From: an uncultured Bacillota bacterium | GTDB lineage: Bacteria > Bacillota > DTU025 > MWDF01 | Length of the DNA: 64,000 nt | Reading direction: 5' to 3' | Assembly: GCA_963823655.1 (NCBI GenBank) | Contig: CAWGMK010000004.1 | Span: 1 to 64,000 of the forward strand | Part shown: piece after piece, positions 15,830-32,765 of the stretch | Layout: each line of letters opens with the position of its first letter | How positions within the stretch are numbered: the stretch's first letter is position 1 | Program-made: the position numbers and the translations under genes | The notes under the pieces: generated by a model | What the model was told of the DNA's origin: nothing | What the model saw: the letters and a program-made list of their open reading frames with translations, nothing else | Database searches by the model: none

Positions 15830-18243
15830 CTATTTTACATCATGGGCGGGGCTAATTCTACTGTCATAAGCGGCCGCAACCGTTCTGAAAAAGGGCATTT
15901 GACTCCACGTTTGCGAAATCGCCGATATTTCGATTGCCGAATTTCCTATTTTTGCCTCGATCATGCCATCCTTATCCGTCCTCATAACCGTTGTCGATGA
16001 GGCTTCCAGCCTACCCATCGTCGCCGGGTTAGGATGCCCATAATTGTTCCTTCCCACCGAGACTGCCGAAGACACAGGGGCGGCCTTTACAAGGAAGGCA
16101 GATGTGGCCGATGTAGCCGCGCCGTGATGGCCGACTTTGAGGAAATCAATCCTTCCCTCATCGTACCCTGCCTCGAATCCTGCGCCGGCATCGGCTGCCA
16201 GTATTGCCTTTTGCTGCCCATATTCGATAATCGCGACTAAAGACTCTTCGTTCAGGTCCTCGCCGGGTCCGATTCTGTCCTTGGGGTTCACGAATGCCAC
16301 AACCACCCGGCCGGCGCATATTCTGTCGCCTGCCATTACCTCGATTGGCTCAAGCATTGCCTCCCTAACAAGCATATTTGCCGCAACATCCCCTGCTGGG
16401 ATAAGCACCTTTCCGATCTTTATGGCAGATGCCAGGGCTGAAAGCCCCGATGAGTGGTCCATATGCCCGTGCGTGATGACTAGAACATCTATCCTGCTTA
16501 TGCCAAGATGGCGAAGAACGGGCAGTATCCTTTGATCCATCGCGCTGATGCCTTTGTAGGCCGGGCCCGTGTCGAATAGCATGCAAAGATCCTTCCCGGC
16601 GGTTACAAGTATCGAATCCCCCTGTCCCACCGAAAGCACCTTTATGTCGAGCTTTGGGCTTGCTGTAAGCGAAGCCAGCAACAAGGCTGACAGGGTGATA
16701 GGAAGGATGGGCCCTGTCCTCAAAGCAAGCCCCTTAAAGAGCATCCTTGCCGAGATAATGCCCTTGAATGAAAGAAATGCGAAAACTATGACCATATAAT
16801 ACAGAATGCTGAAAAAGCCCTGCTTTATGCCTGTAGGCAACATGAACATGTAAAGCCCAGATAACAACCTCGCAAGAAACAATATGATTTGCAGGAAGGG
16901 CCTCACCGTGATTGCTGCAAACGATCCTAGCGCAGGCCAGAGAAGGCTCAGGGCAAATGATGCCAGCGCAAGCGTCAAGGCGGCAGAAGCCGCGGGTATA
17001 GCGATGATGTTCGCCAATGGGGAAAGGACGCTCATGCTGCCGTAGAAGCCCATGATAACAGGCAGCATGGCGGCATTTATGAAAAGCGAGATGCCTATCG
17101 CGTTCTTGATGAAGTCCAGGACTTTTTCCGCCTTGTTGCTTCTTATCAGGCCCCTTTCGAACCGCGCTTGTGAATGCTGTAAGCCCGATTATCGCAAGAT
17201 ATGACATCTGGAATCCGGAATCGAACAGGCTCATTGGAGATAAGACAAGCTGAAAGAATGCCGCCAGCAGGAGCAAACTAAAGAGGCTGGGCGGATTTTA
17301 TCCGCAGTGCCTTGCAAAGGGCGGATATGCTGCCCATCAAGGCGGCCCTTATTATCGAAGGCCTGGAACCGGCCGCAATGGAGTAGACCGGCAGAAGAGA
17401 AACAACTGTACAAGCCCTCAACCAACTCGCGATGCCCAGCCTTGATAGCAGCCATACTATGGCGCCTACCACAATGGATACATGCAGCCCTGAAGCGGAC
17501 ATGATATGGGAAAGTCCCCCCGCTTTGAAGGCGGAATTAACCTCAGGATCAAGTTCCGATTTGTCGCTTAAGGCAATGGCGTCCATTAGCGATTTCTCAT
17601 CACCTGCACCGAAAGCCCTTTCCGTGAACCTCTTAAATCGGGAGAGGAATGCCCAGGCAACCTCAGTGTACAACCCCGCCCATCCTGCCTCGCTTGATGT
17701 GACTTCAAGCTCGTTGGCATAGGCATGCACGCCCCTTCCGAACCAATAGGACCTCCCATCGAACGCTCCGGGATTCACGGGCCCATCAATAAGGGAAACC
17801 TCAGCAGTCGCTATGATCGCGTCTCCGGGATCTGCCTCCAGGCCGCTTCCGGGAGCAAAGGAATCGCCGTCGATGAGCAACCTCCCATTAAGCTTGCCAC
17901 GGCCTTTTACATTAAGGGAACCTAGCAGGTATTGCCTTCCGAAGGCCGTTTCGAAAATCCAATGGATTCGCCCGCTGACGGCCACCTTCTCCCCGGCCAA
18001 AGTGGCTATTGAATCTTTCGCCGAAACGTCCACCCTGATGACCGCAAGAAGCCCAGAAGTCAGACCAATTAATACAAGCATGCACAGACCCACTATGCGG
18101 CTGAAGTCATGCCTCTTTCTGGCTTTCCTGATTATTACCGGCGCAGATACTACTGCCGCGGCCAATACGGAAACGGCGAGGCCAAAGCCCAGCTTGCTGT
18201 ATGTAACAATAATGATTATCAATGAGACGACCAGGGCCACCAT
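15830..18243 (-). CDS. comEC: DNA uptake channel ComEC (frameshifted)
   Basis: GLSHIMSASGLHV, PSIIRA, GFQMSY, VGQGDS, THGHMDH, KVGHHG, NNYGHP. Confidence 0.9.
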
Positions 18244-23679: not shown

Positions 23680-24999
23680 CTACACTCCTATCCCGGCGCT
23701 TTCCGAGTAATCGAATTCGTAGTTGAGTATCCTTACCAAATCGCCTTCCTTGATTCCCATATCCCTCAGCCTCTGGATGATGCCGGCTTTAATGAACATG
23801 CCGTACATCCTCTTCATGGCCTCCTCGTTGTTCGTATCCGTCCTCAGCAGGAGCCTCTCAACGCCCTCTCCGGACAGCACAAAGGCGCCTCCGAAGTGGA
23901 CGATCTTTGCGTCTCTTAGCTTCTGGCCCCTCAGGACATAGACTCTCTCCCCGCCCTGCTTCACAATGACTTCGGCGGCGACTCTTCTCAGCCTGTCCTC
24001 TTCCTCGTAAAGCATCTTCGTTACAGCTGACATCAACGCCCCGATGCCCTGCGTCGTAGCAGCAGAGATTTCGTACACATCGGCGCCGGAAGCCTGCTTG
24101 ATCCGGTCAAGTATAGACTTGTCCTCCATGATGTCCGCCTTGTTTGCGGCAATTATAAACGGCTTTGTCACCATCACGGGATCATAAAGGCTGAGCTCAT
24201 TTCTTACCTTATGGAAATCATCCACGGGGTCGCGCCCTTCGGACCCGGCTGCGTCTATCACATGTACCAGGACCTTAGTCCTTTGCACATGCCTTAGAAA
24301 CTCATGGCCGAGGCCTGCGCCCTGCGATGCCCCTTCTATCAGGCCCGGTATGTCCGCCACGACAAAGCTGTCGTCCTCGTGCTCGACGACGCCAAGCACA
24401 GGAGAAAGCGTTGTGAACGGGTAGTTGGCAATCTTCGGCCTTGCGGATGTAATGACCGATATAAGCGTGGATTTTCCCGCATTGGGATAGCCCACAAGGC
24501 CTACGTCGGCAAGCAGCTTAAGCTCAATCCTTAAGGTCTTCTCCTCGCCGGGAAGCCCCTTTTCCGCATATCTCGGAGTCTGGCGGATGGGCGTTGCGAA
24601 TTGGGCATTGCCCCTGCCGCCGGTACCCGCTTTCGCTATGACTACCGAGACGTCCTCGTCCACGAGGTCAGCTATCAGCTCCCCCGTCTCATCGTCGAAT
24701 ATCATGGTTCCTGCGGGGAATTTCAGCACAGTATCGTCTGCGCTCTTGCCGCTCCTGTTCCAGACTTCGCCGTCTGCGCCATTATCCGCTTTGATGACGG
24801 TTTTGTAGCGATAATCCGCCAAAGTCCTGAATGACGGGTCTACGGTCGCGATGATGTTGCCACCCTTGCCGCCGTCACCGCCGTTGGGGCCTCCTCTGGG
24901 GATGAATTTCTCCCTGCGGAAGCTCACGGAGCCGTTTCCGCCTTTACCGGCTGTTATCTTAATCTTCGCGCTATCGACAAACATGTAGTCTTTGCGCAC
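23680..24999 (-). CDS. obgE: GTPase ObgE
   Basis: MFVD, Gly-rich Obg fold, GYPNAGKST, YPFTT, DIPGLIEGA, NKAD. Confidence 0.97.
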   Translation of the reverse strand: MRKDYMFVDSAKIKITAGKGGNGSVSFRREKFIPRGGPNGGDGGKGGNIIATVDPSFRTLADYRYKTVIKADNGADGEVWNRSGKSADDTVLKFPAGTMIFDDETGELIADLVDEDVSVVIAKAGTGGRGNAQFATPIRQTPRYAEKGLPGEEKTLRIELKLLADVGLVGYPNAGKSTLISVITSARPKIANYPFTTLSPVLGVVEHEDDSFVVADIPGLIEGASQGAGLGHEFLRHVQRTKVLVHVIDAAGSEGRDPVDDFHKVRNELSLYDPVMVTKPFIIAANKADIMEDKSILDRIKQASGADVYEISAATTQGIGALMSAVTKMLYEEEDRLRRVAAEVIVKQGGERVYVLRGQKLRDAKIVHFGGAFVLSGEGVERLLLRTDTNNEEAMKRMYGMFIKAGIIQRLRDMGIKEGDLVRILNYEFDYSESAGIGV

Positions 25000-25058
25000 C
25001 TCTCCTAGAATCTATCCATTATTTCGATTAGCTATAATATAATACACTTCCATATGCA

Positions 25059-25734
25059 TCACAGTATACCTTCATTATTGCCCAACTTTGCCCTCCAGAC
25101 GGCCGTAATGTTAAGAAAGGCGTGCACAAACGCCGGTCCGATTATGCTTGAGCTGCCGATAAATAGCATCTGCAGGGCCATCGCGCACAGGAATGGGAAT
25201 ATGGATGCGTACATTATCATGCCCCTGCGATGCCTGAGAATGGCGGCGGGCGCTGCATGGACGAACGCAAAAGCTGCTGCCTGACCGATATTTGCAGTCA
25301 GCGGGCCGAGTCTAGTATTAAGCGCTGAGAACAGAAACCCTCTGAAGACCAGCTCCTCCAGAAATGCCGCAGGTATGCAAAACGGTATTGCAAGGACCAT
25401 GGCGAGCCTGCTGTTCATAAAACGGAGAGAGCGCGACGCCCCTCCGGCGCTAACCCCCTTCAAGTTCTCCTTCCCATCCATCCCGAATATTGCCGCAAGG
25501 GCCCTTCCTGTCAGGAAGAGCCCCGCAAAGCATATTAAAATCAAGTCCTGTCTGGCCGGATTCCGGCATGGCGAGCATGCTTTCGAATCTCGCGTCCTTG
25601 CCCAACGGATAGAATATGTAAAGGATCGCCAGAAGAAGCAGGTCTCCGATGTCTATGGCAGGCCCGCTCCTAGTTGACGCCCTGATGATCGCTTTCATGG
25701 CAGCAAGGCACGCCAATGCAATCCTTATTTGCAT
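25059..25734 (-). CDS. CPBP (CAAX/Abi) intramembrane glutamic protease, frameshifted
   Basis: EELVFRG, FAFVH, HAFLN motifs; hydrophobic segments. Confidence 0.8.
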
Positions 25735-26968
25735 CTTCTGTCATCCTCCTGATGTTCTCGGACACCTTAAGGGAATCATCCCAGTTCCATGCAAAGGCCG
25801 AATAGACCGCCTTATATGTCGCGCAGTTCGGGTCAAGTCCGCCGTTCGCCATAGCTGCCGCTTTGCAGCCTCCCCCGCAAAGATACCTTACATCGCAAAG
25901 GGCGCATACAGGGTGCCTGTCCACGTCAGCTAACAGCTCGGCATCGGACAAGGGCCTGTCCCACAATAGATGGCAGGGGTGTAGCTGCCCATCCCCGGTG
26001 CAGGAGATTATCCTGCTACCAGCGCCGCACGACGCCTTGGAAAGCATGGGCATTATGTCCTCAAGTATGGATGAATCATCGATCTCCCCCCGTTCAACGC
26101 ATTTGCCGAGGTATTGCGCAATTGACGCAAGCAGGCCGCTTTCATCGTGCGTTCCCTGTTCCTTGCCCCTGCCGACATTCACCATGAGACTGCCGTGGCA
26201 ACCTGTGCCAAGGCTTCCCGCAAACCTCAGCATGCGGTCTATCTCAAGTTTGGAACCCGGCGTAATGGTCGGGACTATCTCCACATCTATGCCGAGGGCC
26301 GCCGCCTTCGCCGCCAATTCCGCGGCGATCTTATGGCAGCCCGCTCCCCTGATGCCGTCGTGCTCAGCCGCTATACAGCTTTCAACCGAGATCTGCAGTC
26401 CCATGCCCAATGATTTTAGCAGCTCGTACGGTATTCGCTCGGGCATGGTTCCGTTCGTGCACAACACGGCCTTAATCCCCTTAAGCGCAGATATTATCGA
26501 AGGCAGATCTTCCCTTGCGCATGGCTCCCCGCCCGTTATATATACCTTTGCCGGCTTTAATAACCTGAGCTTGCCAACTGCGGATAGTATTGAGCCAAGC
26601 GTATGATCGGAATTTGCGCTTTCGCCCATATAGCAGGAAGGGCAGTTCAGATTGCACCTTCTGGTCACTATGAGGTAGGCTTTTGAAATCCGCTGCTTTG
26701 CCGATTTGCATTTGCTCCCCTTCTCCACCAGCATGCCTGTATCGGCCAGCTCCGCTGCCATCCTAAGCATTCCGACCGCCTCGCCGTTTCCCATCACGGC
26801 GGCCTCCCTTGCCAGGCTTATACCTTCCTGCCTTGCGAAGAAATCCGCCGCGAAGCCGGATACCCTGCACCACGAACCGTTGGCGATGTTGTGCATCAGC
26901 GCATCATCGCCCCTGACAACCGTCCTTACGTCCTCTGAAAGGACCGCCAATCTCTGCTCAACACCCAT
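25670..26968 (-). CDS. Radical SAM/SPASM peptide maturase with probable N-terminal RRE
   Basis: CNLNCPSC, TGGEP, TNGT, HDGIRG; SPASM CGAG…HPC…CALC…CGGGC…C; about 90-aa N-terminal extension; AGGAGG RBS. Confidence 0.85.
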   Translation of the reverse strand: MGVEQRLAVLSEDVRTVVRGDDALMHNIANGSWCRVSGFAADFFARQEGISLAREAAVMGNGEAVGMLRMAAELADTGMLVEKGSKCKSAKQRISKAYLIVTRRCNLNCPSCYMGESANSDHTLGSILSAVGKLRLLKPAKVYITGGEPCAREDLPSIISALKGIKAVLCTNGTMPERIPYELLKSLGMGLQISVESCIAAEHDGIRGAGCHKIAAELAAKAAALGIDVEIVPTITPGSKLEIDRMLRFAGSLGTGCHGSLMVNVGRGKEQGTHDESGLLASIAQYLGKCVERGEIDDSSILEDIMPMLSKASCGAGSRIISCTGDGQLHPCHLLWDRPLSDAELLADVDRHPVCALCDVRYLCGGGCKAAAMANGGLDPNCATYKAVYSAFAWNWDDSLKVSENIRRMTEDANKDCIGVPCCHESDHQGVN

Positions 26969-27027
26969 GCCGCACCTCCTAGAATAGGAAGGCGGAGCCC
27001 ATTTTCAAGGCCCCGCCGGCTCAATTT

Positions 27028-27129
27028 TTACCCTAGCGTAATCGAAAAAATCCATATCGGGAAATTGATGCAGTAACCGTCTATTGCGATATCCAGCCTG
27101 GCAGTTCTTCCCGTCCTTTTCTTGAACAT
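27028..27129 (-). CDS. Putative RiPP precursor, 33 aa: MFKKRTGRTARLDIAIDGYCINFPIWIFSITLG
   Basis: GGAGGT RBS 7 nt before ATG; directly upstream of the rSAM gene, separated by a GC hairpin (26991-27017). Confidence 0.7.
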   Translation of the reverse strand: MFKKRTGRTARLDIAIDGYCINFPIWIFSITLG

Positions 27130-27262
27130 TTCCGCCACCTCCGTTATTTCGTCAAACGTACTTTGCTTAGGGGAGACAACCCTCGAAAGTACCGCCTGCG
27201 AAACAATCTTCACATGCCGGAGGCGCCGGCTGGAATCGGGCGGAAGTATGATTGGTGCCGCA

Positions 27263-27730
27263 TCAATCGGAGCATCCTGCTAATCCCATATCGAGGGCCT
27301 TCCTTACGGCAGCGCTGCGGCAATTGACATTGAGCTTCTGAAAGATGGACCTAACATGAGTCTTGATCGTATTAACCGATACGAACATGTCCGATGCGAT
27401 GATCTTGTTGCTCTTCCCCTCGGAGAGCCTTTCCAGCACGCACGTTTCCGTTGCCGTCAGCTTGGACGCCCCGAAGTCCATCTCAAGCCTTCTGGCTTGC
27501 GCAGTTTTGTACCCCTTAAGCTGCCCTGTCGCCTGGCCCGAATTCAAGTAAAGGTAGATGACGCCCCTTCCTATGCTGCCGTCGTCTCCGGCCGCCTTGC
27601 CATAGGAACCGTTCTGAAGAACAGGCGTGCTGCCCGCAGGCATAAGAAGCGCTTCCATTACACAGGTGATCTGCTCGCCTCTCGGAGGGGTCGATCCGCT
27701 GAACTCGACTTCCATTGTCTCATTCTCCAT
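27263..27730 (-). CDS. LuxR-family HTH transcriptional regulator
   Basis: LTATETCVL…GKSNKIIA…VSVNTIKTHVRSIFQKLNV; no recognisable receiver domain. Confidence 0.85.
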   Translation of the reverse strand: MENETMEVEFSGSTPPRGEQITCVMEALLMPAGSTPVLQNGSYGKAAGDDGSIGRGVIYLYLNSGQATGQLKGYKTAQARRLEMDFGASKLTATETCVLERLSEGKSNKIIASDMFVSVNTIKTHVRSIFQKLNVNCRSAAVRKALDMGLAGCSD

Positions 27731-27837
27731 GGCATGTACCTCCCGTAAAGAAATTGTTTACTACCATATAATTACCAATATTTCCAATATGATGCCACTA
27801 GAAAAATGGGCTAATCATTCTGGGATTCCATAAGCTA

Positions 27838-27874
27838 AAGGGGCGGAACGGCTTAATGCCGGCCTCGCCCCTTC
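27838..27874 (-). terminator. Hairpin after scfB
   Basis: AAGGGGCG…CGCCCCTT inverted repeat. Confidence 0.5.
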
Positions 27875-27900
27875 GTGTAATATCCTTTTTTTGCCTTTTC

Positions 27901-29250
27901 CTAAATTCCTGCTTGAAGCCTTAACGCGCATTCCAGCCTTTTCCTGGTAATTGCGCAACCGATTCCATATGGCTCAAGAATGCTCCCATTGGATGAGAAG
28001 GCGTTCGCATGGCAGCCTCCGCTGCAGAAGAACCTCGCCCAGCAATCGGAGCAGCCCCTCTTTGAATAGATGTTTGCGGCGGAGAAATCGCCCACTACTT
28101 CAGGGTGTTCTATCCCGCTTCCAGACATCGCCCAGCTTGAATTCGGGCTTGCCTACGAACTGGTGGCATGGGTAGATATCCCCCTCAGGAGTAACCGCCA
28201 CGTAATCTGCGCCCGCGCCGCAGCCGGAAAGCCTCTTTGCCAGGCAGGGGCCCTTTGCCACGCTCATGTCGAAATGGAAGAACAGGAACGGCCTGCCCTC
28301 CTTCTGCCTTTTGAGCATGAACTCCACAAGCCTGTCATATTCCTCGAATATCCTGGGAAGGTGCTCTTCCTTTATCTGCATCGGCGTACCGTCGAAAAGG
28401 ACCACAGGCTCGAAGGATATCCTGTCGAAGCCAAGGTCCGCCACATACTCTACGTCCTTCTGGAAGTCCAGGTTCAGGGCGGTGTATGTGCCCCTTGCGT
28501 AGTAATCCTGCCCGTCCCTGGTCTTGACGAATTTGAGGGAGTTTTCGGAGATCTTACCGCTCGTCCGGCTGCCGTCGTCAGCCCTTCTTACCCTGTCGTG
28601 CACCTCGGGCCTTCCGTCCATGCTGAGCACCACTGCCATGTCGTTGTCGTTGAGAAACTTCATGGAGGCCTCGTCCATGCTCAGAGCATTAGTCGTGAGC
28701 GTGAACTTCATCACCTTGCCGTGCTGCTTCTCAAGCTGCCTGCCGTAGGCTACGACTTGAGCCACCGCGTCCATATTCATAAGCGGTTCCCCGCCGAAGA
28801 AGTCGATTTCAAGGTGCTTCACATCGCCTGACGCCTTTACAAGAAAGTCCAGACCCGCTTTTCCGACCTCCGGGCTCATGAGCTTCCTCATGCCGCCGAA
28901 GCCGCCCTGGCCTGCGAAGCAGTAGGCGCAACGCATGTCGCAGTCATGGGCTATATGCAAGCAAAGGGCCTTAACAACCCTCTCGTGGGACCAGCTGACC
29001 TCGGGGTCCTTCGTTTCCGGGTCGGTAAGCAATCCCTCTTCCATCATGCTTTTGAGCTCTTCATAGGCTTCGGCAAGGCCTTTTCCGCCGGCCGCCCGCT
29101 CCTCGTCCAATGCCGCAGCAAGCCCGCCATCCGCCATGCGGTCGACCAGAACGGCCGCATCCTTGTCCAGGATATGAAGGCTTCCTGATATTACGTCGTA
29201 AAGAAAATCCGCCCCTTTCGCCGAGAACCTGTGCCAATTCCTCTTCAGGC
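27901..29250 (-). CDS. scfB: SCIFF ranthipeptide radical SAM maturase (frameshift near 28120; start approximate)
   Basis: KALCLHIAHDCDMRCAYCFA, DFFGGEPLMN, GPCLAKRLSGCGAG, CWARFFCSGGCHAN; follows scfA. Confidence 0.92.
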
Positions 29251-29289
29251 TTTCGGACGCGGGGCGGATGGCGGCGTTATTTTCCTTAA

Positions 29290-29439
29290 TTATTTGCGGC
29301 AAGCCTGGTTACCCAATGTGCATGAAGTCTTGCAAGCCGACTGGCAGGATGTCTGGCACTCCCTGCAGCCGCCGCCGGTGGCCTTGGACTTAAGATCGGA
29401 TGCGATCACCGTGCGGAAATGCTTCTTGTTGTTCTCCAT
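29290..29439 (-). CDS. scfA: Six-cysteine ranthipeptide precursor SCIFF (49 aa; absent from ORF track)
   Basis: MENNKKHFRTV…GGGCRECQTSCQSACKTSCTLGNQACRK*, GGAGG RBS. Confidence 0.95.
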   Translation of the reverse strand: MENNKKHFRTVIASDLKSKATGGGCRECQTSCQSACKTSCTLGNQACRK

Positions 29440-29525
29440 AGTAGTCCTCCGTTCATGAAGGTTATTTTACCCGGTAATTATATCACTGTCGGGGGGCGTC
29501 GTGAAGACGCCCCGCCAATAAGATC

Positions 29526-30533
29526 CTAAAGGTTCGAGAAGTCTGCGTTCATGAACTCGACCGTAAGCTTTATGGCTGCCTCGTAGTCTGACATGTCGAT
29601 CATCTCGGCCGGGGTATGAAGATTCCTTGTCGGCACCGAAATCGTGCCGGTGGGCACTCCCATCCTGGTCAGCTGTATAGCGGCAGCGTCCGTGGCCCCG
29701 CCGTCTAGCACTTCCATCTGGTAAGGTATGCCCTTCTTCTCCGCAAGCTCGATGAGCAGGTTCTTTATGCCGGGATGCGCTACGGCGCCCGAGTCCTTCG
29801 CCTTAATTGCCGCGCCCTTGCCCAGCTCCATGTTCATCGGCGCGCTGTTCGGGGTGTCGCCGGCGCCTGTTACGTCCAGCGAAAGGCCTATCTCAGGGTC
29901 GATGCCGTAGGCGGCTACCCTTGCGCCTCTTAGGCCCAGCTCCTCTTGGGTGCTGAACACGCAATAGAGCTCGTTTTTCGGGTTCTTGACCGCCTTCATG
30001 GCCTCTATTAGGAGCGCGCAGCAGGCCCTGTCGTCCATGGACTTGGCGATGCAGCGGTCCCCGTTGTCGTAGAAGTATGACACATAACCGCATATGTCGC
30101 CGACTTTGACCTTCTTCAGGGCCTCTTCCTTGGTTTTGGCGCCGATGTCTATGAACATCTTGGAGAATGCCAGGTCGTTGGGGCCCTCCTGCTTCTCAAG
30201 TCCGAAGTAGCCTATAGTGCCGTTCTCGAAGACTACTTTCTGCCCTACCAAAGTCATCGGCTTGTGGCCTCCGATGTTGGAGAAGCGGATGAAGCCTTTG
30301 TCGTCGATATGCATTGCCGCGAATCCTATCTCGTCCATATGGGCCGAGATCATTACCTTCCTGGTCTTGGCCGTAGGTTTCGAGGGCCTCTTTACACATA
30401 TGAGATTGCCAAGGCTGTCGACTTTGAAGTCGTCGCAGTGCTTGGCCACCTCGCTGCTGATGATATCCCTGATGCTCTTCTCGGCACCGGACGGCCCGAA
30501 TGCCTCCGTCAGCTCCCTGATAAGTTCCTTCAT
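29526..30533 (-). CDS. M42 family aminopeptidase
   Basis: AHMDEIG, DDR, QEELGLRGA, TDA, H. Confidence 0.92.
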   Translation of the reverse strand: MKELIRELTEAFGPSGAEKSIRDIISSEVAKHCDDFKVDSLGNLICVKRPSKPTAKTRKVMISAHMDEIGFAAMHIDDKGFIRFSNIGGHKPMTLVGQKVVFENGTIGYFGLEKQEGPNDLAFSKMFIDIGAKTKEEALKKVKVGDICGYVSYFYDNGDRCIAKSMDDRACCALLIEAMKAVKNPKNELYCVFSTQEELGLRGARVAAYGIDPEIGLSLDVTGAGDTPNSAPMNMELGKGAAIKAKDSGAVAHPGIKNLLIELAEKKGIPYQMEVLDGGATDAAAIQLTRMGVPTGTISVPTRNLHTPAEMIDMSDYEAAIKLTVEFMNADFSNL

Positions 30534-31555
30534 CTTGGCAATCCCCTTTCATCTATGCTTTCGAGGAAGGCTTCTACCAGCTTCCCCGTATTTTTAAAGT
30601 CCTTCTCGTCTATCACGCTCACAGGTGAATGAATATATCTGCAGGGGACCGATACCGCAGTCGCGGGAAGCCCCGCCCTGCTGTGGCGTATCTTGCCGGC
30701 ATCGGTGCCTCCGCTTATCGTTGTCTTGTGCTGATAGGCGATCTTCTTAGCCTCGGCGACTTCCACAAGCCTTGCGACCAGCTTCAAGTCGGCGAACATG
30801 CTCCCGTCCATCTGAACGATGACCGGGCCCTTGCCCAGGAAAGTCGAGCTCTTGTGATCCTCCGTTGGGAAGACGTCGTGAGCCGTCGTGCCCTCGATAA
30901 CAAGCCCTAAGTCGGGCTCTATCGCCCATGTGGCGACCTGCGCTCCCCTGAGGCCTACTTCTTCCTGCACAGTGAATACGCCGTACAGGTCGAAGTCATG
31001 CTGCTTCTTGAGAGCTTCTACTATCGTTGCGCAGCCGACCCTGTCGTCGAGCGCCTTGCCCTTGATCTTGCCGGCGCCCAGCTTTTCAAACGGCGTATCG
31101 AAGCAGATCTGCTCGCCCGGTTCTACCATCTTGGCCGCGTCTTCCTTGCTCTTGGCGCCGATGTCCACATACAATGCTTCCATAGGGATGGGTTTGTCCT
31201 GTTCATCCTTGCTTTGCAGGTGGATTGGCTTTGCACCGATGACTCCGGGCAGCTTCTTTACGCCCACTTTTACAGTCTTCGAAACAAGCACCCTCGGATC
31301 CACTCCGCCGCAGGATATCACCTTGATCAGTCCGCTGGCATCGATGGACTTAACTAGAAGGCCTACCTCATCCATGTGGGCCGCAAGCATGACCTTGACG
31401 CCGCCTTTGCGCCCCTTGCGAAGGGCTATGAGGTTTCCTATGGAGTCCACCCTGATCTCATCCGCGTGGCTCATTATCTCGGCGGCTATGGCATCGCGGA
31501 CCTCGTCCTCGTGGCCTGACACGCCAGAGACCATGCTTAACCTTTCAAGCAGCAT
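30530..31555 (-). CDS. M42 family aminopeptidase
   Basis: AHMDEVG, LDDRVG, QEEVGLRGA, GGTDAG, RYIHSP. Confidence 0.92.
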   Translation of the reverse strand: MLLERLSMVSGVSGHEDEVRDAIAAEIMSHADEIRVDSIGNLIALRKGRKGGVKVMLAAHMDEVGLLVKSIDASGLIKVISCGGVDPRVLVSKTVKVGVKKLPGVIGAKPIHLQSKDEQDKPIPMEALYVDIGAKSKEDAAKMVEPGEQICFDTPFEKLGAGKIKGKALDDRVGCATIVEALKKQHDFDLYGVFTVQEEVGLRGAQVATWAIEPDLGLVIEGTTAHDVFPTEDHKSSTFLGKGPVIVQMDGSMFADLKLVARLVEVAEAKKIAYQHKTTISGGTDAGKIRHSRAGLPATAVSVPCRYIHSPVSVIDEKDFKNTGKLVEAFLESIDERGLPR

Positions 31556-32598
31556 GTCAATCCCTCCTTGAACTCTTTGTCGACGGCTGCGCAGAAGTAG
31601 GCCATGAGCCTTCCGCACTTCTTGACGTCGTCCACATCGAGGGTCTCAACGCTTGTGTGCATATTCCTCACAGGAAGCCCCAGGATGGCCGTAGCCACGC
31701 CCGCTCCCGTCACTTGCATCGGGAATGCGTCCGTGCCGCCCGGCCTTCCGCTTACTTGCATCTGCAAGGTTATATTGTGATCCGCGGCCGTCTTCTTAAT
31801 GAGGCCGAGGACTTTGGGGTTCACATCAGGTGCCATTTCCGAGCCGGGGCCTCCGCCAAGAGGGCTTCCCTCATCTTCAGAAATCCCAGGCATCGTGCCG
31901 AAGCCGACGTCGACTGCGATTCCGATGTCCGGCATTATGCCGTACGTCGCGGTGTAGCCGCCGCCGTAGGTTATCTCCTCCTGGACCGTCGCCACGTAGT
32001 ATACGTCGGCATCATGGTCCATCTTCTTAAGCTCGGTCGCGCACTGCCATATGGCGGCCAGGCACACCCTGTCGTCCATGGATTTGCCTGCTATCCTGCC
32101 GTTGGCAAGCTCTATGCTCTTCCTTCTGAAGCTAACGATGTCACCAACGCGTACAAGCTTCCTGAGCTCCTCTTCCGAGTAGCCGCAGTCGATGACTAGC
32201 TCTTCCATCTTCCAGGCTTTCTTCCTGTCCTCATCCGTTTGAAGATGCGGGGGGCATGCCGAGAACACTCCGAAGATGTCCTTGCGGCCGTGGACGACCA
32301 CTTCCATGGAAGGCAGTATGCGCTGGTCAATGCCGCCTACCTGTGTCACCCTCAGGAACCCGCCCTTTTCGATCCTTTTTACAATCATGCCGATCTCGTC
32401 ATAGTGTGCGGCCAGCATTATCTTGGCCGTCCCGGGCGTCCTGCCCTTTTTCAGCATTACGATGCTGCCAAGCTTGTCCACCCTTACCTCGTCCACATAA
32501 TCCTTGAAAAGGGATTTGACCAGCTCTGCCGAGTTGGTCTCGTGGCCGGACACGCCGTAGGTGTCCGAGAGCTTCATTACTACTTCTTTAAGCTCCAT
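31537..32598 (-). CDS. M42 family aminopeptidase
   Basis: AHYDEIG, DDR, VQEE, GTDA, RNMHT. Confidence 0.9.
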   Translation of the reverse strand: MELKEVVMKLSDTYGVSGHETNSAELVKSLFKDYVDEVRVDKLGSIVMLKKGRTPGTAKIMLAAHYDEIGMIVKRIEKGGFLRVTQVGGIDQRILPSMEVVVHGRKDIFGVFSACPPHLQTDEDRKKAWKMEELVIDCGYSEEELRKLVRVGDIVSFRRKSIELANGRIAGKSMDDRVCLAAIWQCATELKKMDHDADVYYVATVQEEITYGGGYTATYGIMPDIGIAVDVGFGTMPGISEDEGSPLGGGPGSEMAPDVNPKVLGLIKKTAADHNITLQMQVSGRPGGTDAFPMQVTGAGVATAILGLPVRNMHTSVETLDVDDVKKCGRLMAYFCAAVDKEFKEGLTCCLKG

Positions 32599-32677
32599 TT
32601 CCGAACTCCTCTCTGATGAGCTGGAATATACATTTATAATTCTACAATTATTCCCGTTCTTTTTCACCCGTAAGTGC

Positions 32678-32765
32678 AAAAAAGCAGGCAGCCCCGCTCG
32701 CTGCCTGCTTTAAGGGAGGTATTCGCATGTCTTCGCATTTACTCGTCTTGCCCGTGCTTGCTCTT
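32678..32765 (-). ncRNA. Candidate small RNA with anti-SD motif
   Basis: ECF-like promoter at 32774-32799, ACCTCCCTT motif, terminator AAAGCAGGCAGC…GCTGCCTGCTTTTTT. Confidence 0.35.

Follow-up and report, generated by a model that had tools for sequence, protein, structure and literature searches.

A 64,000-nucleotide stretch of contig CAWGMK010000004.1 (assembly GCA_963823655.1) from an uncultured Bacillota bacterium, hereafter called the window, carries between scfB and obg a cassette of four co-oriented genes on the minus strand (positions 25059-27730). This cassette probably is a self-contained unit for an uncharacterised family of peptides that are made by ribosomes and modified after translation (RiPPs), matured by a radical S-adenosylmethionine (rSAM) enzyme, with a sactipeptide-like product in which one thioether would start from Cys20, the only cysteine of a 33-residue precursor. 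The peptide is most likely a new modified peptide. The original prediction, made from the sequence alone, had described four co-oriented genes between scfB and obgE and had read them as encoding an rSAM RiPP whose precursor could be assigned to no known type. The gene arrangement was confirmed, and this part of the reading is supported by the linkage of the peptide gene to the rSAM gene, by the features of the rSAM protein and by the absence of family matches. In the direction of transcription, the order is scfA, scfB, regulator gene, 133-nucleotide spacer, 33-codon gene, hairpin, rSAM gene, gene of a CPBP ("CAAX proteases and bacteriocin-processing") protein and obg. Searches of Pfam and NCBIfam confirmed the assignments of scfA, scfB, GerE, Radical_SAM and Rce1-like/CPBP. 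The elements of the cassette are the following.

27263-27730, minus strand: GerE/LuxR-type helix-turn-helix (HTH) regulator, 155 residues (PF00196)
27130-27262, minus strand: conserved non-coding spacer of 133 nucleotides from the regulator gene to the peptide gene, including GGAGGTG
27028-27129, minus strand: precursor peptide gene, 33 codons plus stop (ATG at 27129, stop at 27030-27028)
26991-27017, minus strand: G+C-rich hairpin with T-rich tail, separating the peptide gene from the rSAM gene (10 pairs, 8 of them G-C)
25670-26968, minus strand: radical SAM/SPASM peptide maturase, 432 residues, with a fused N-terminal domain resembling a RiPP recognition element (RRE) (PF04055)
26741-26947, minus strand: RRE-like domain of the maturase, residues 8-76 (AlphaFold2 model and profile alignment to CteB)
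26633-26656, minus strand: CxxxCxxC cluster motif, Cys105/109/112, followed by invariant Tyr113 (alignment)
25823-26029, minus strand: SPASM region with 7 Cys (314, 332, 355, 358, 364, 368, 382), aligning to the SPASM domain of CteB
25545-25734, minus strand: N-terminal part of the CPBP protease (ATG at 25734), with a 65-nucleotide overlap with the end of the rSAM gene
25059-25544, minus strand: C-terminal 161 residues of the CPBP (Rce1-like) glutamic intramembrane protease, with all catalytic motifs (PF02517)

The peptide gene starts at an ATG (27129) that is preceded by the ribosome-binding site GGAGGTG (27136-27142) at a distance of 6 nucleotides, in agreement with the strong site proposed earlier for this internal start codon. 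A longer open reading frame (ORF) of 61 codons (27028-27213) was rejected, because three relatives (L002, L003 and L004) carry an in-frame stop codon just upstream of the same start. In the relatives, the conserved start is ATG or GTG with a Shine-Dalgarno sequence before it, and the gene always comprises 33 codons. The precursor consists of a basic, leader-like N-terminal half and a hydrophobic, aromatic C-terminal half, with Cys20 as its single cysteine. All of the 18 distinct peptides that were aligned have 33 residues and show no insertions or deletions; M1, F2, G7, C20, F23, W26, T31 and G33 are invariant and R11 is nearly so. Ten more distant copies again have 33 residues and keep G7, C20, F23, W26, T31 and G33, with Tyr permitted at position 2. 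Within the genus, synonymous changes amount to 0.34-0.88 per site, compared to 0.03-0.16 for non-synonymous changes. Judged by these substitution patterns, the peptide gene is under selection and its conservation exceeds chance. No match to the peptide was found in Pfam or NCBIfam, in keeping with the original prediction, in which the precursor could not be matched to the SCIFF, streptide, darobactin or YydF types; its C-terminus reads Thr-x-Gly, without the Val-Tyr end of mycofactocin precursors.

An orthologue of the rSAM gene is present in all six genomes of the same genus (6/6) and in most genomes of the same order, and the order regulator-peptide-rSAM-CPBP was found by tblastn in all 11 loci of the first relatives, save where a contig ends. 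A scan with the rSAM alignment, in which each species was represented by one genome, yielded 41 loci. A hidden Markov model (HMM) of the peptide matched all of the loci in which the rSAM protein is about 30% identical or more and upstream DNA is available (15/15), but had no match at the 23 loci whose rSAM proteins are more distant and stem from other phyla (L031-L053, from Betaproteobacteria, Acidobacteriota, Olsenella and others). The search was extended to 401 genomes sampled evenly across the phylum, which gave 24 strong peptide matches. Of these, 13 come from genomes outside the class, belonging to three additional families; another two matches were weak and probably spurious. Ten of the 13 out-of-class genomes were fetched, and all ten contain regulator, peptide and rSAM gene in this order. 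The peptide is thus real and tied to the rSAM gene. A lack of an adjacent peptide beside homologous rSAM genes had been named as evidence that would speak against the cassette; instead, the peptide was found in 15/15 and 10/10 loci.

Three of the more distant rSAM/SPASM proteins, from a betaproteobacterial metagenome-assembled genome (MAG; L031), an Acidobacteriota MAG (L032) and Olsenella sp. An270 (L033), are 28-33% identical to the window maturase and stand without the peptide. Their best models are StsB (97-182 bits) or a heme-pathway rSAM, and they probably act on other precursors.

In our collection, the order to which the window belongs is equivalent to its class and comprises 21 species genomes, of which 18 contain exactly one copy of the peptide. 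In two of the remaining three genomes (G002 and G017), the rSAM match lies at the start of a contig, so that the peptide gene would fall off it. The third, G008, is 96% complete and has no rSAM orthologue. The gene directly upstream of obg in G008 (locus L079, contig C93, 1401-2402, minus strand) encodes a Spo0B-like protein with SPOB_a and HATPase_c domains; a spo0B-obg arrangement is known from Bacillus. When 1.84 billion representative proteins were searched with a profile of the peptide, only 12 matches at E <= 0.001 came up, which indicates that the family is rare. Ten of them are small proteins of 33-72 residues that end in the motif (one with a single-residue insertion), and the rest, two long proteins of repetitive sequence, were taken as spurious. 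As far as searched, and according to record titles, the family is confined to uncultured Bacillota.

The maturase matches the radical SAM model PF04055 with 47.7 bits (cut-off 29.5). The cluster motif C105xxxC109xxC112 and the seven C-terminal cysteines are invariant in 10 aligned homologues; the match of the window protein to the Pfam SPASM model fell short of E 0.01. In the AlphaFold2 model of the protein (mean predicted local distance difference test score, pLDDT, 72), residues 8-76 form four short strands and three helices ahead of the barrel, a layout of strands followed by three helices that in the model corresponds to an RRE; the Pfam PqqD model gave no match on the protein. The CxxxCxxC motif, the full set of SPASM cysteines and the N-terminal extension of RRE size that had been noticed at first sight thereby found support in the alignment and in the model. 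The top Foldseek matches were SkfB, SuiB, TigE and CteB (E 1e-12 to 1e-10), and a comparison of the family profile with solved structures gave CteB (2.7e-24, N-terminal domain included), SkfB (1.9e-19) and PqqE (2.8e-19). A single-sequence search of the PDB had returned GDGT-MAS only, the relatives emerging with the profile search, and a search of the ESM Atlas with a homologue (P0011) gave generic rSAM/SPASM clusters only.

Among the NCBIfam models, the best for the window maturase was StsB (NF045574), with 67.7 bits against a cut-off of 625, compared to 39.3 bits for MftC (TIGR03962, cut-off 265) and 32.2 bits for AlbA (NF012164, cut-off 850); the SCIFF maturase model TIGR03974 (cut-off 425; SCIFF, six cysteines in forty-five residues) was absent among the best 25 models, the lowest of which scored 28.7 bits. 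Other maturases of the family scored 99-149 bits with StsB (maximum 148.8) and 95-129 bits with MftC (maximum 129.4), all below the cut-offs. StsB was the best model for two of the four other maturases tested (L069 and L025), whereas MftC scored higher for L019 and L075. The cut-off of no characterised family was reached, so that no family hit spoke against the original prediction. On these scores the maturase is placed outside all defined families, in the neighbourhood of StsB and MftC. Its nearest relatives are StsB, SkfB and CteB, all of which form thioethers, along with MftC.

This neighbourhood has been described as polyfunctional, and StsB was reported to resemble MftC overall and yet to make Cys-to-Gly sactionines (Precord et al. 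2023, PMC10288494). The same source defines, by sequence landmarks, six "catalytic site proximity" positions, which we mapped from HMMER alignments rather than by the scoring of that paper (in the CteB chain, numbering is that of the paper plus 3). All six positions except the third (170) are invariant in the maturase alignment. The residues are as follows.

Window family: Tyr113, Thr145, Cys170 (Ala or Ser in other genera), Ser194, His333, Leu334
StsB (residues as given in PMC10288494): Y, T, I, S, K, L; 4/6 identical to the window family
SkfB (our own reading of the alignment): Y, T, F, S, Q, L; 4/6 identical to the window family
CteB: F, F, T, S, H, Q; 2/6 identical to the window family
PqqE (our own reading of the alignment): S, S, I, S, H, A; 2/6 identical to the window family

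In this comparison with StsB, SkfB, CteB and PqqE, the pattern as we mapped it may favour a sactisynthase-like site.

A complex of the peptide and the rSAM protein was modelled together with three 4Fe-4S clusters and S-adenosylmethionine, using own alignments for both chains. The complex score (ipSAE) was 0.90, 0.90 and 0.91, and that of the best of three controls 0.00; in calibration, 116 of 157 solved complexes came up to the score mark, as did 2 of 215 mismatched pairs, but this calibration is only rough here because of the own alignments and the riding ligands. At least 82% of the contacts were common to the runs, with a partner pLDDT of at least 68. Peptide residues 2-7 and 16-33 touch the maturase in the model, which on the side of the RRE involves residues 34-36, 40, 66-67 and 70 and on the side of the barrel and SPASM domain residues 113, 143, 145, 170, 232, 257-261, 314-316, 332-334 and 367-368, including five of the six active-site positions. 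The model supports a placement of the N-terminal end of the peptide on the RRE, with its C-terminal half threaded into the barrel. The fused RRE would accordingly hold the basic N-terminal part of the precursor, while the hydrophobic C-terminal half (residues 16-33 approximately) would sit in the catalytic barrel. After hydrogen abstraction, the sulfur of Cys20 would most likely be linked to a carbon atom in a residue further downstream, which closes a single thioether ring. The most likely form would be a sactionine at an alpha-carbon, with the invariant Gly33 or Thr31 as candidate acceptors; a link from sulfur to the alpha-carbon of Gly33, or a link to Thr31, are our most specific guesses.

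Whether a thioether is indeed formed we regard as about an even call. When a peptide poor in Cys keeps one invariant Cys, this residue is usually a thioether donor, and the active-site positions agree with StsB and with SkfB at four of six, compared to two of six for PqqE. Several observations weigh against the sactipeptide-like reading. The mapping of the six positions was derived here from HMMER alignments and does not include MftC residues. Every NCBIfam match of the maturase is far below its cut-off, and since MftC scores as high as or higher than StsB for L019 and L075, placement by sequence does not separate thioether formation from other chemistry. The complex score may partly reflect likeness, as solved leader-RRE complexes exist (SuiB, CteB); the protease gene, discussed below, is frameshifted in this assembly; and the invariant Phe23 and Trp26 suit an aromatic C-C cross-link equally well. 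The same cassette might perform a non-thioether chemistry: Phe23 or Trp26 could receive an aromatic C-C or C-O cross-link, the conserved C-terminus could undergo a reaction like that of MftC, or a residue could be epimerised, with Cys20 serving otherwise. Phe23, Trp26, Thr31 and Gly33 are as invariant as Cys20, the MftC model comes near or above StsB for several maturases of the family, the nearest folds and sequences include PqqE and SuiB, the latter making a Lys-Trp cross-link, and the best-defined contacts of the complex model are at peptide residues 23-32. The precursor, however, lacks the C-terminal Val-Tyr of the mycofactocin type, and taken together with the active-site positions and the lone cysteine this leaves a non-thioether chemistry a rather unlikely, though substantial, alternative to the thioether.

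The last gene of the cassette matches PF02517 with 49.1 bits (cut-off 22.4). The motifs EExxFR, FxxxH and HxxLN are invariant in 12/12 aligned homologues spanning all lineages, and a Pro-Gly-Gly turn ahead of them is nearly so, while the best NCBIfam neighbours, an ABC-permease/CPBP fusion (ABC, ATP-binding cassette) and Mrt sorting proteases, are all weak. This motif pattern is that of an active glutamic intramembrane protease and speaks against a relic in decay. The protein, whose translation is coupled to that of the maturase, would trim the modified peptide at the membrane and may in addition shield the producing cell; it could thus serve in leader cleavage, in immunity or in both.

In the out-of-class loci, the CPBP gene directly follows the rSAM gene wherever downstream DNA is available (9/9), and it is itself followed by the gene of a DrrA-like ABC-2 ATPase in six of the nine and by UPF0182 in the other three. 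An ABC-2 permease gene comes after the ATPase in the three loci tested for it (3/3). At two of the loci (L066 and L069), a large tetratricopeptide repeat protein is encoded upstream of the cassette. The original prediction had the protease mature or release the peptide since no dedicated ABC exporter was present; this argument does not carry over to the family, because distant members have the ATPase and permease genes after CPBP, so that across the family the protease does not take the place of an exporter. No ABC-2 pair was found in the 12-42 kb part of the window.

The CPBP protein might alternatively serve mainly for immunity or self-protection, the leader being removed by another peptidase or not at all. 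Proteins of the Abi/CPBP family are known to play an immunity role beside bacteriocin genes, and the ABC-2 ATPase and permease after CPBP in 6/9 distant loci are of a drug or lantibiotic protection type (DrrA-like). The catalytic Glu-Glu, Arg and His are nevertheless invariant across deep divergence, and the gene is coupled to that of the maturase and present in all nine distant loci, even those without the ABC pair. We consider a mainly protective function possible but on the whole unlikely; it and processing of the peptide are not mutually exclusive.

In the window, the CPBP gene lies in two frames. Some 60 codons from 25734 onward make up its first part, and the rest corresponds to a 161-codon ORF, whereas five relatives of the same genus have a single CPBP ORF of 219-227 residues. 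The protease of the original prediction, placed at 25059-25544, was correct as to its identity, but this ORF represents only the C-terminal 161 residues of a protein that starts at 25734. The neighbouring scfB is likewise split near 28117 into pieces of 400 and 75 residues, which together span TIGR03974 end to end. Logan contigs of four public runs, which are 90-99% like the window and come from close relatives and a different assembly, were aligned to positions 24900-29500. The extra base at 25545 is absent in 3/3 runs covering the site, in contigs 95-99% identical to the window, and its deletion restores the CPBP frame; the base at 28117 is absent in the one run covering it and its deletion restores the frame of scfB. 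Elsewhere in the window, comEC (15830-18243, minus strand) appears to be split into at least two ORFs as a third interrupted gene, and such an accumulation of broken genes in a single assembly points to indel errors. The CPBP and scfB splits are most likely due to indels of the assembly. A cassette decaying in this genome, with the protease and scfB as true pseudogenes, would account for single-nucleotide frameshifts in both genes and for the split comEC, and the near-identical contigs leave room for a strain-specific lesion, but those contigs lack both extra bases and the remaining cassette genes are intact; we hold decay to be very improbable.

The regulator matches PF00196 with 59.8 bits (cut-off 23.5), the only Pfam match in this protein, which shows no receiver or autoinducer-binding domain. 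Only its C-terminal HTH (residues 88-150 approximately) is conserved among 15 aligned homologues, and the N-terminal 85 residues or so vary even within the class. In one distant lineage (L069), part of a receiver domain is found in the regulator, but its similarity to the window protein is limited to the HTH. No adjoining histidine kinase gene was seen at any locus examined. The GerE/LuxR-type protein would control the operon, and the spacer between its gene and the peptide gene could act as an operator or an RNA element. Among six genus-level loci, this spacer shows a mean column identity of 74% with invariant blocks; these include CGTTTGA about 15 nucleotides ahead of the ribosome site. The stem-loop noted earlier behind the peptide gene was recovered as the 10-pair hairpin and is kept in 6/6 genus-level loci. 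It looks like a partial terminator or attenuator, and by attenuating read-through it may keep the precursor in excess over the enzymes. No Rfam family was found in 24500-30000 at E <= 0.1, and a scan for sigma-70 promoters gave no excess (4 found, compared to a mean of 2.8 in shuffled sequence).

The other genes referred to in the window are located as follows.

29290-29439, minus strand: scfA, 72 bits, above its own NCBIfam cut-off
28100-29302, continued in another frame at 27901-28128, minus strand: scfB, the SCIFF maturase gene, 447.6 and 85.3 bits for its two pieces
23680-24999: obg, about 60 nucleotides past the CPBP gene, followed by nadD, yqeK, rsfS and leuS
17278-18243, minus strand: N-terminal part of comEC, DUF4131 and Competence domains
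15830-17068, minus strand: C-terminal part of comEC, Competence and Lactamase_B domains

Directly upstream of scfA lie three tandem paralogues of M42-family aminopeptidase genes (29526-32679, minus strand).

The position of the cassette bears on what the product may do. That nearly every genome of this uncultured class, which stems from digesters and wastewater, has the cassette in a single copy speaks for a function in physiology more than for warfare between strains. Such class-wide, single-copy and syntenic conservation beside obg is unusual for a bacteriocin and recalls SCIFF, which is encoded right beside the cassette. It is conceivable that the product is an intracellular peptide-derived cofactor or housekeeping signal, like mycofactocin, pyrroloquinoline quinone (PQQ) or SCIFF, and not a secreted compound. 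The single copy in 18/21 genomes of the class, the fixed place among housekeeping genes, the lack of a visible exporter in the window lineage and the relationship of the maturases to MftC and PqqE would fit this. However, no partner redox enzymes or further tailoring genes were seen around the cassette, and the intramembrane protease, together with the ABC-2 pair of other lineages, points to the membrane and the outside; an intracellular product seems very unlikely to us. A more speculative variant, which we advance with little confidence, is that the lineage has, besides SCIFF, another "housekeeping RiPP". By analogy to Rce1, which recognises a prenyl-Cys linked by a thioether, a thioether at the cysteine could be the recognition mark for CPBP, the trimmed peptide being an endogenous signal sensed by the orphan LuxR-type regulator and not an antibiotic. 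In this variant the peptide would be single-copy, inherited vertically and fixed by the obg growth-control operon throughout the class; in the cassette-less relative, a Spo0B-like phosphotransferase takes the corresponding slot. In the sactipeptide-like reading that we prefer, the product might act as a signal or a membrane-active peptide; here, as for the type of cross-link, its acceptor and the substrate of the protease, we infer from gene content and models.

rSAM RiPPs are a main source of new peptide chemistry. The family described here combines a new precursor family, a maturase outside the defined families and an obligatory CPBP partner, and no curated model covers the peptide or the maturase. 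The precursor is very short and invariant in length, with one Cys and a fixed aromatic pattern, and its maturase belongs to the ambiguous neighbourhood of StsB and MftC. To our knowledge, such a combination with an obligatory CPBP partner is known among experimentally studied systems essentially only from the sporulation killing factor (SKF). As the precursor has 33 residues and the maturase contains its own RRE, the system should be easy to test by co-expression, and it could reveal both the reaction of the StsB/MftC neighbourhood and the action of a CPBP protease on a cross-linked peptide. No description of the cassette was found in the literature searched, although the family may already be listed on bioinformatic grounds alone, for instance among the six new sactipeptide groups that Precord et al. 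report or within the rSAM-RiPP atlas of Clark et al.

Compared to known systems, the cassette resembles that of mycofactocin in that MftC (TIGR03962) is an RRE-dependent rSAM/SPASM enzyme that acts near the C-terminus of its peptide and is among the top-scoring models for the family, but the scores stay under the cut-off of 265, the peptide has no Val-Tyr and no mftD-, mftE- or mftF-like genes were found nearby, the neighbours being regulator, CPBP and obg. With SCIFF and ScfB (TIGR03973/TIGR03974) it shares an RRE-containing rSAM/SPASM enzyme acting on a short peptide conserved throughout a lineage, and CteB is the best solved relative of the window maturase by profile. The scfA and scfB genes upstream (27901-29439), however, pass the cut-offs of these models whereas the cassette peptide and maturase do not, the window peptide has one Cys instead of six, and the active site matches CteB at only 2/6 positions.

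StsB of Streptomyces sparsogenes (NF045574), which acts on StsA, is the best curated model for the window maturase, from the same MftC-like neighbourhood. It agrees at 4/6 active-site positions and makes Cys-to-Gly sactionines, and the window peptide ends in an invariant Gly. The Sts system differs in its separate RRE protein, StsC, compared to the fused RRE of the window maturase, and in the three Cys and three Gly described for the hairpin of StsA, compared to one Cys in the window peptide; no CPBP protein is reported for it in the available sections of the source (PMC10288494).

SKF of Bacillus subtilis likewise combines a small precursor with SkfB, an rSAM maturase that makes a thioether and binds peptide through a domain at its N-terminus, and with a putative protease in the membrane. 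Its precursor is modified by a single Cys-to-Met thioether, SkfC is called a "putative protease" and SkfE/F are assigned to export or resistance, as described in PMC8172795. The window precursor is unrelated to that of SKF and much shorter (33 residues), and the window maturase has a 7-Cys SPASM domain as opposed to the twitch domain with a [2Fe-2S] cluster of SkfB described in the same source. No thioredoxin-like or skfG-like gene was seen at the window, the cassette of which includes a LuxR-type regulator. SkfB is nonetheless the top Foldseek match and the second-best profile match of the window maturase. SkfC is presumably a CPBP-family protein. Precursor, rSAM enzyme and membrane protease are present at the window, the ABC pair only in 6/9 distant loci. 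The order peptide-rSAM-CPBP would thus correspond to that of the skf operon, which the ABC-2 pair of the distant members would complete.

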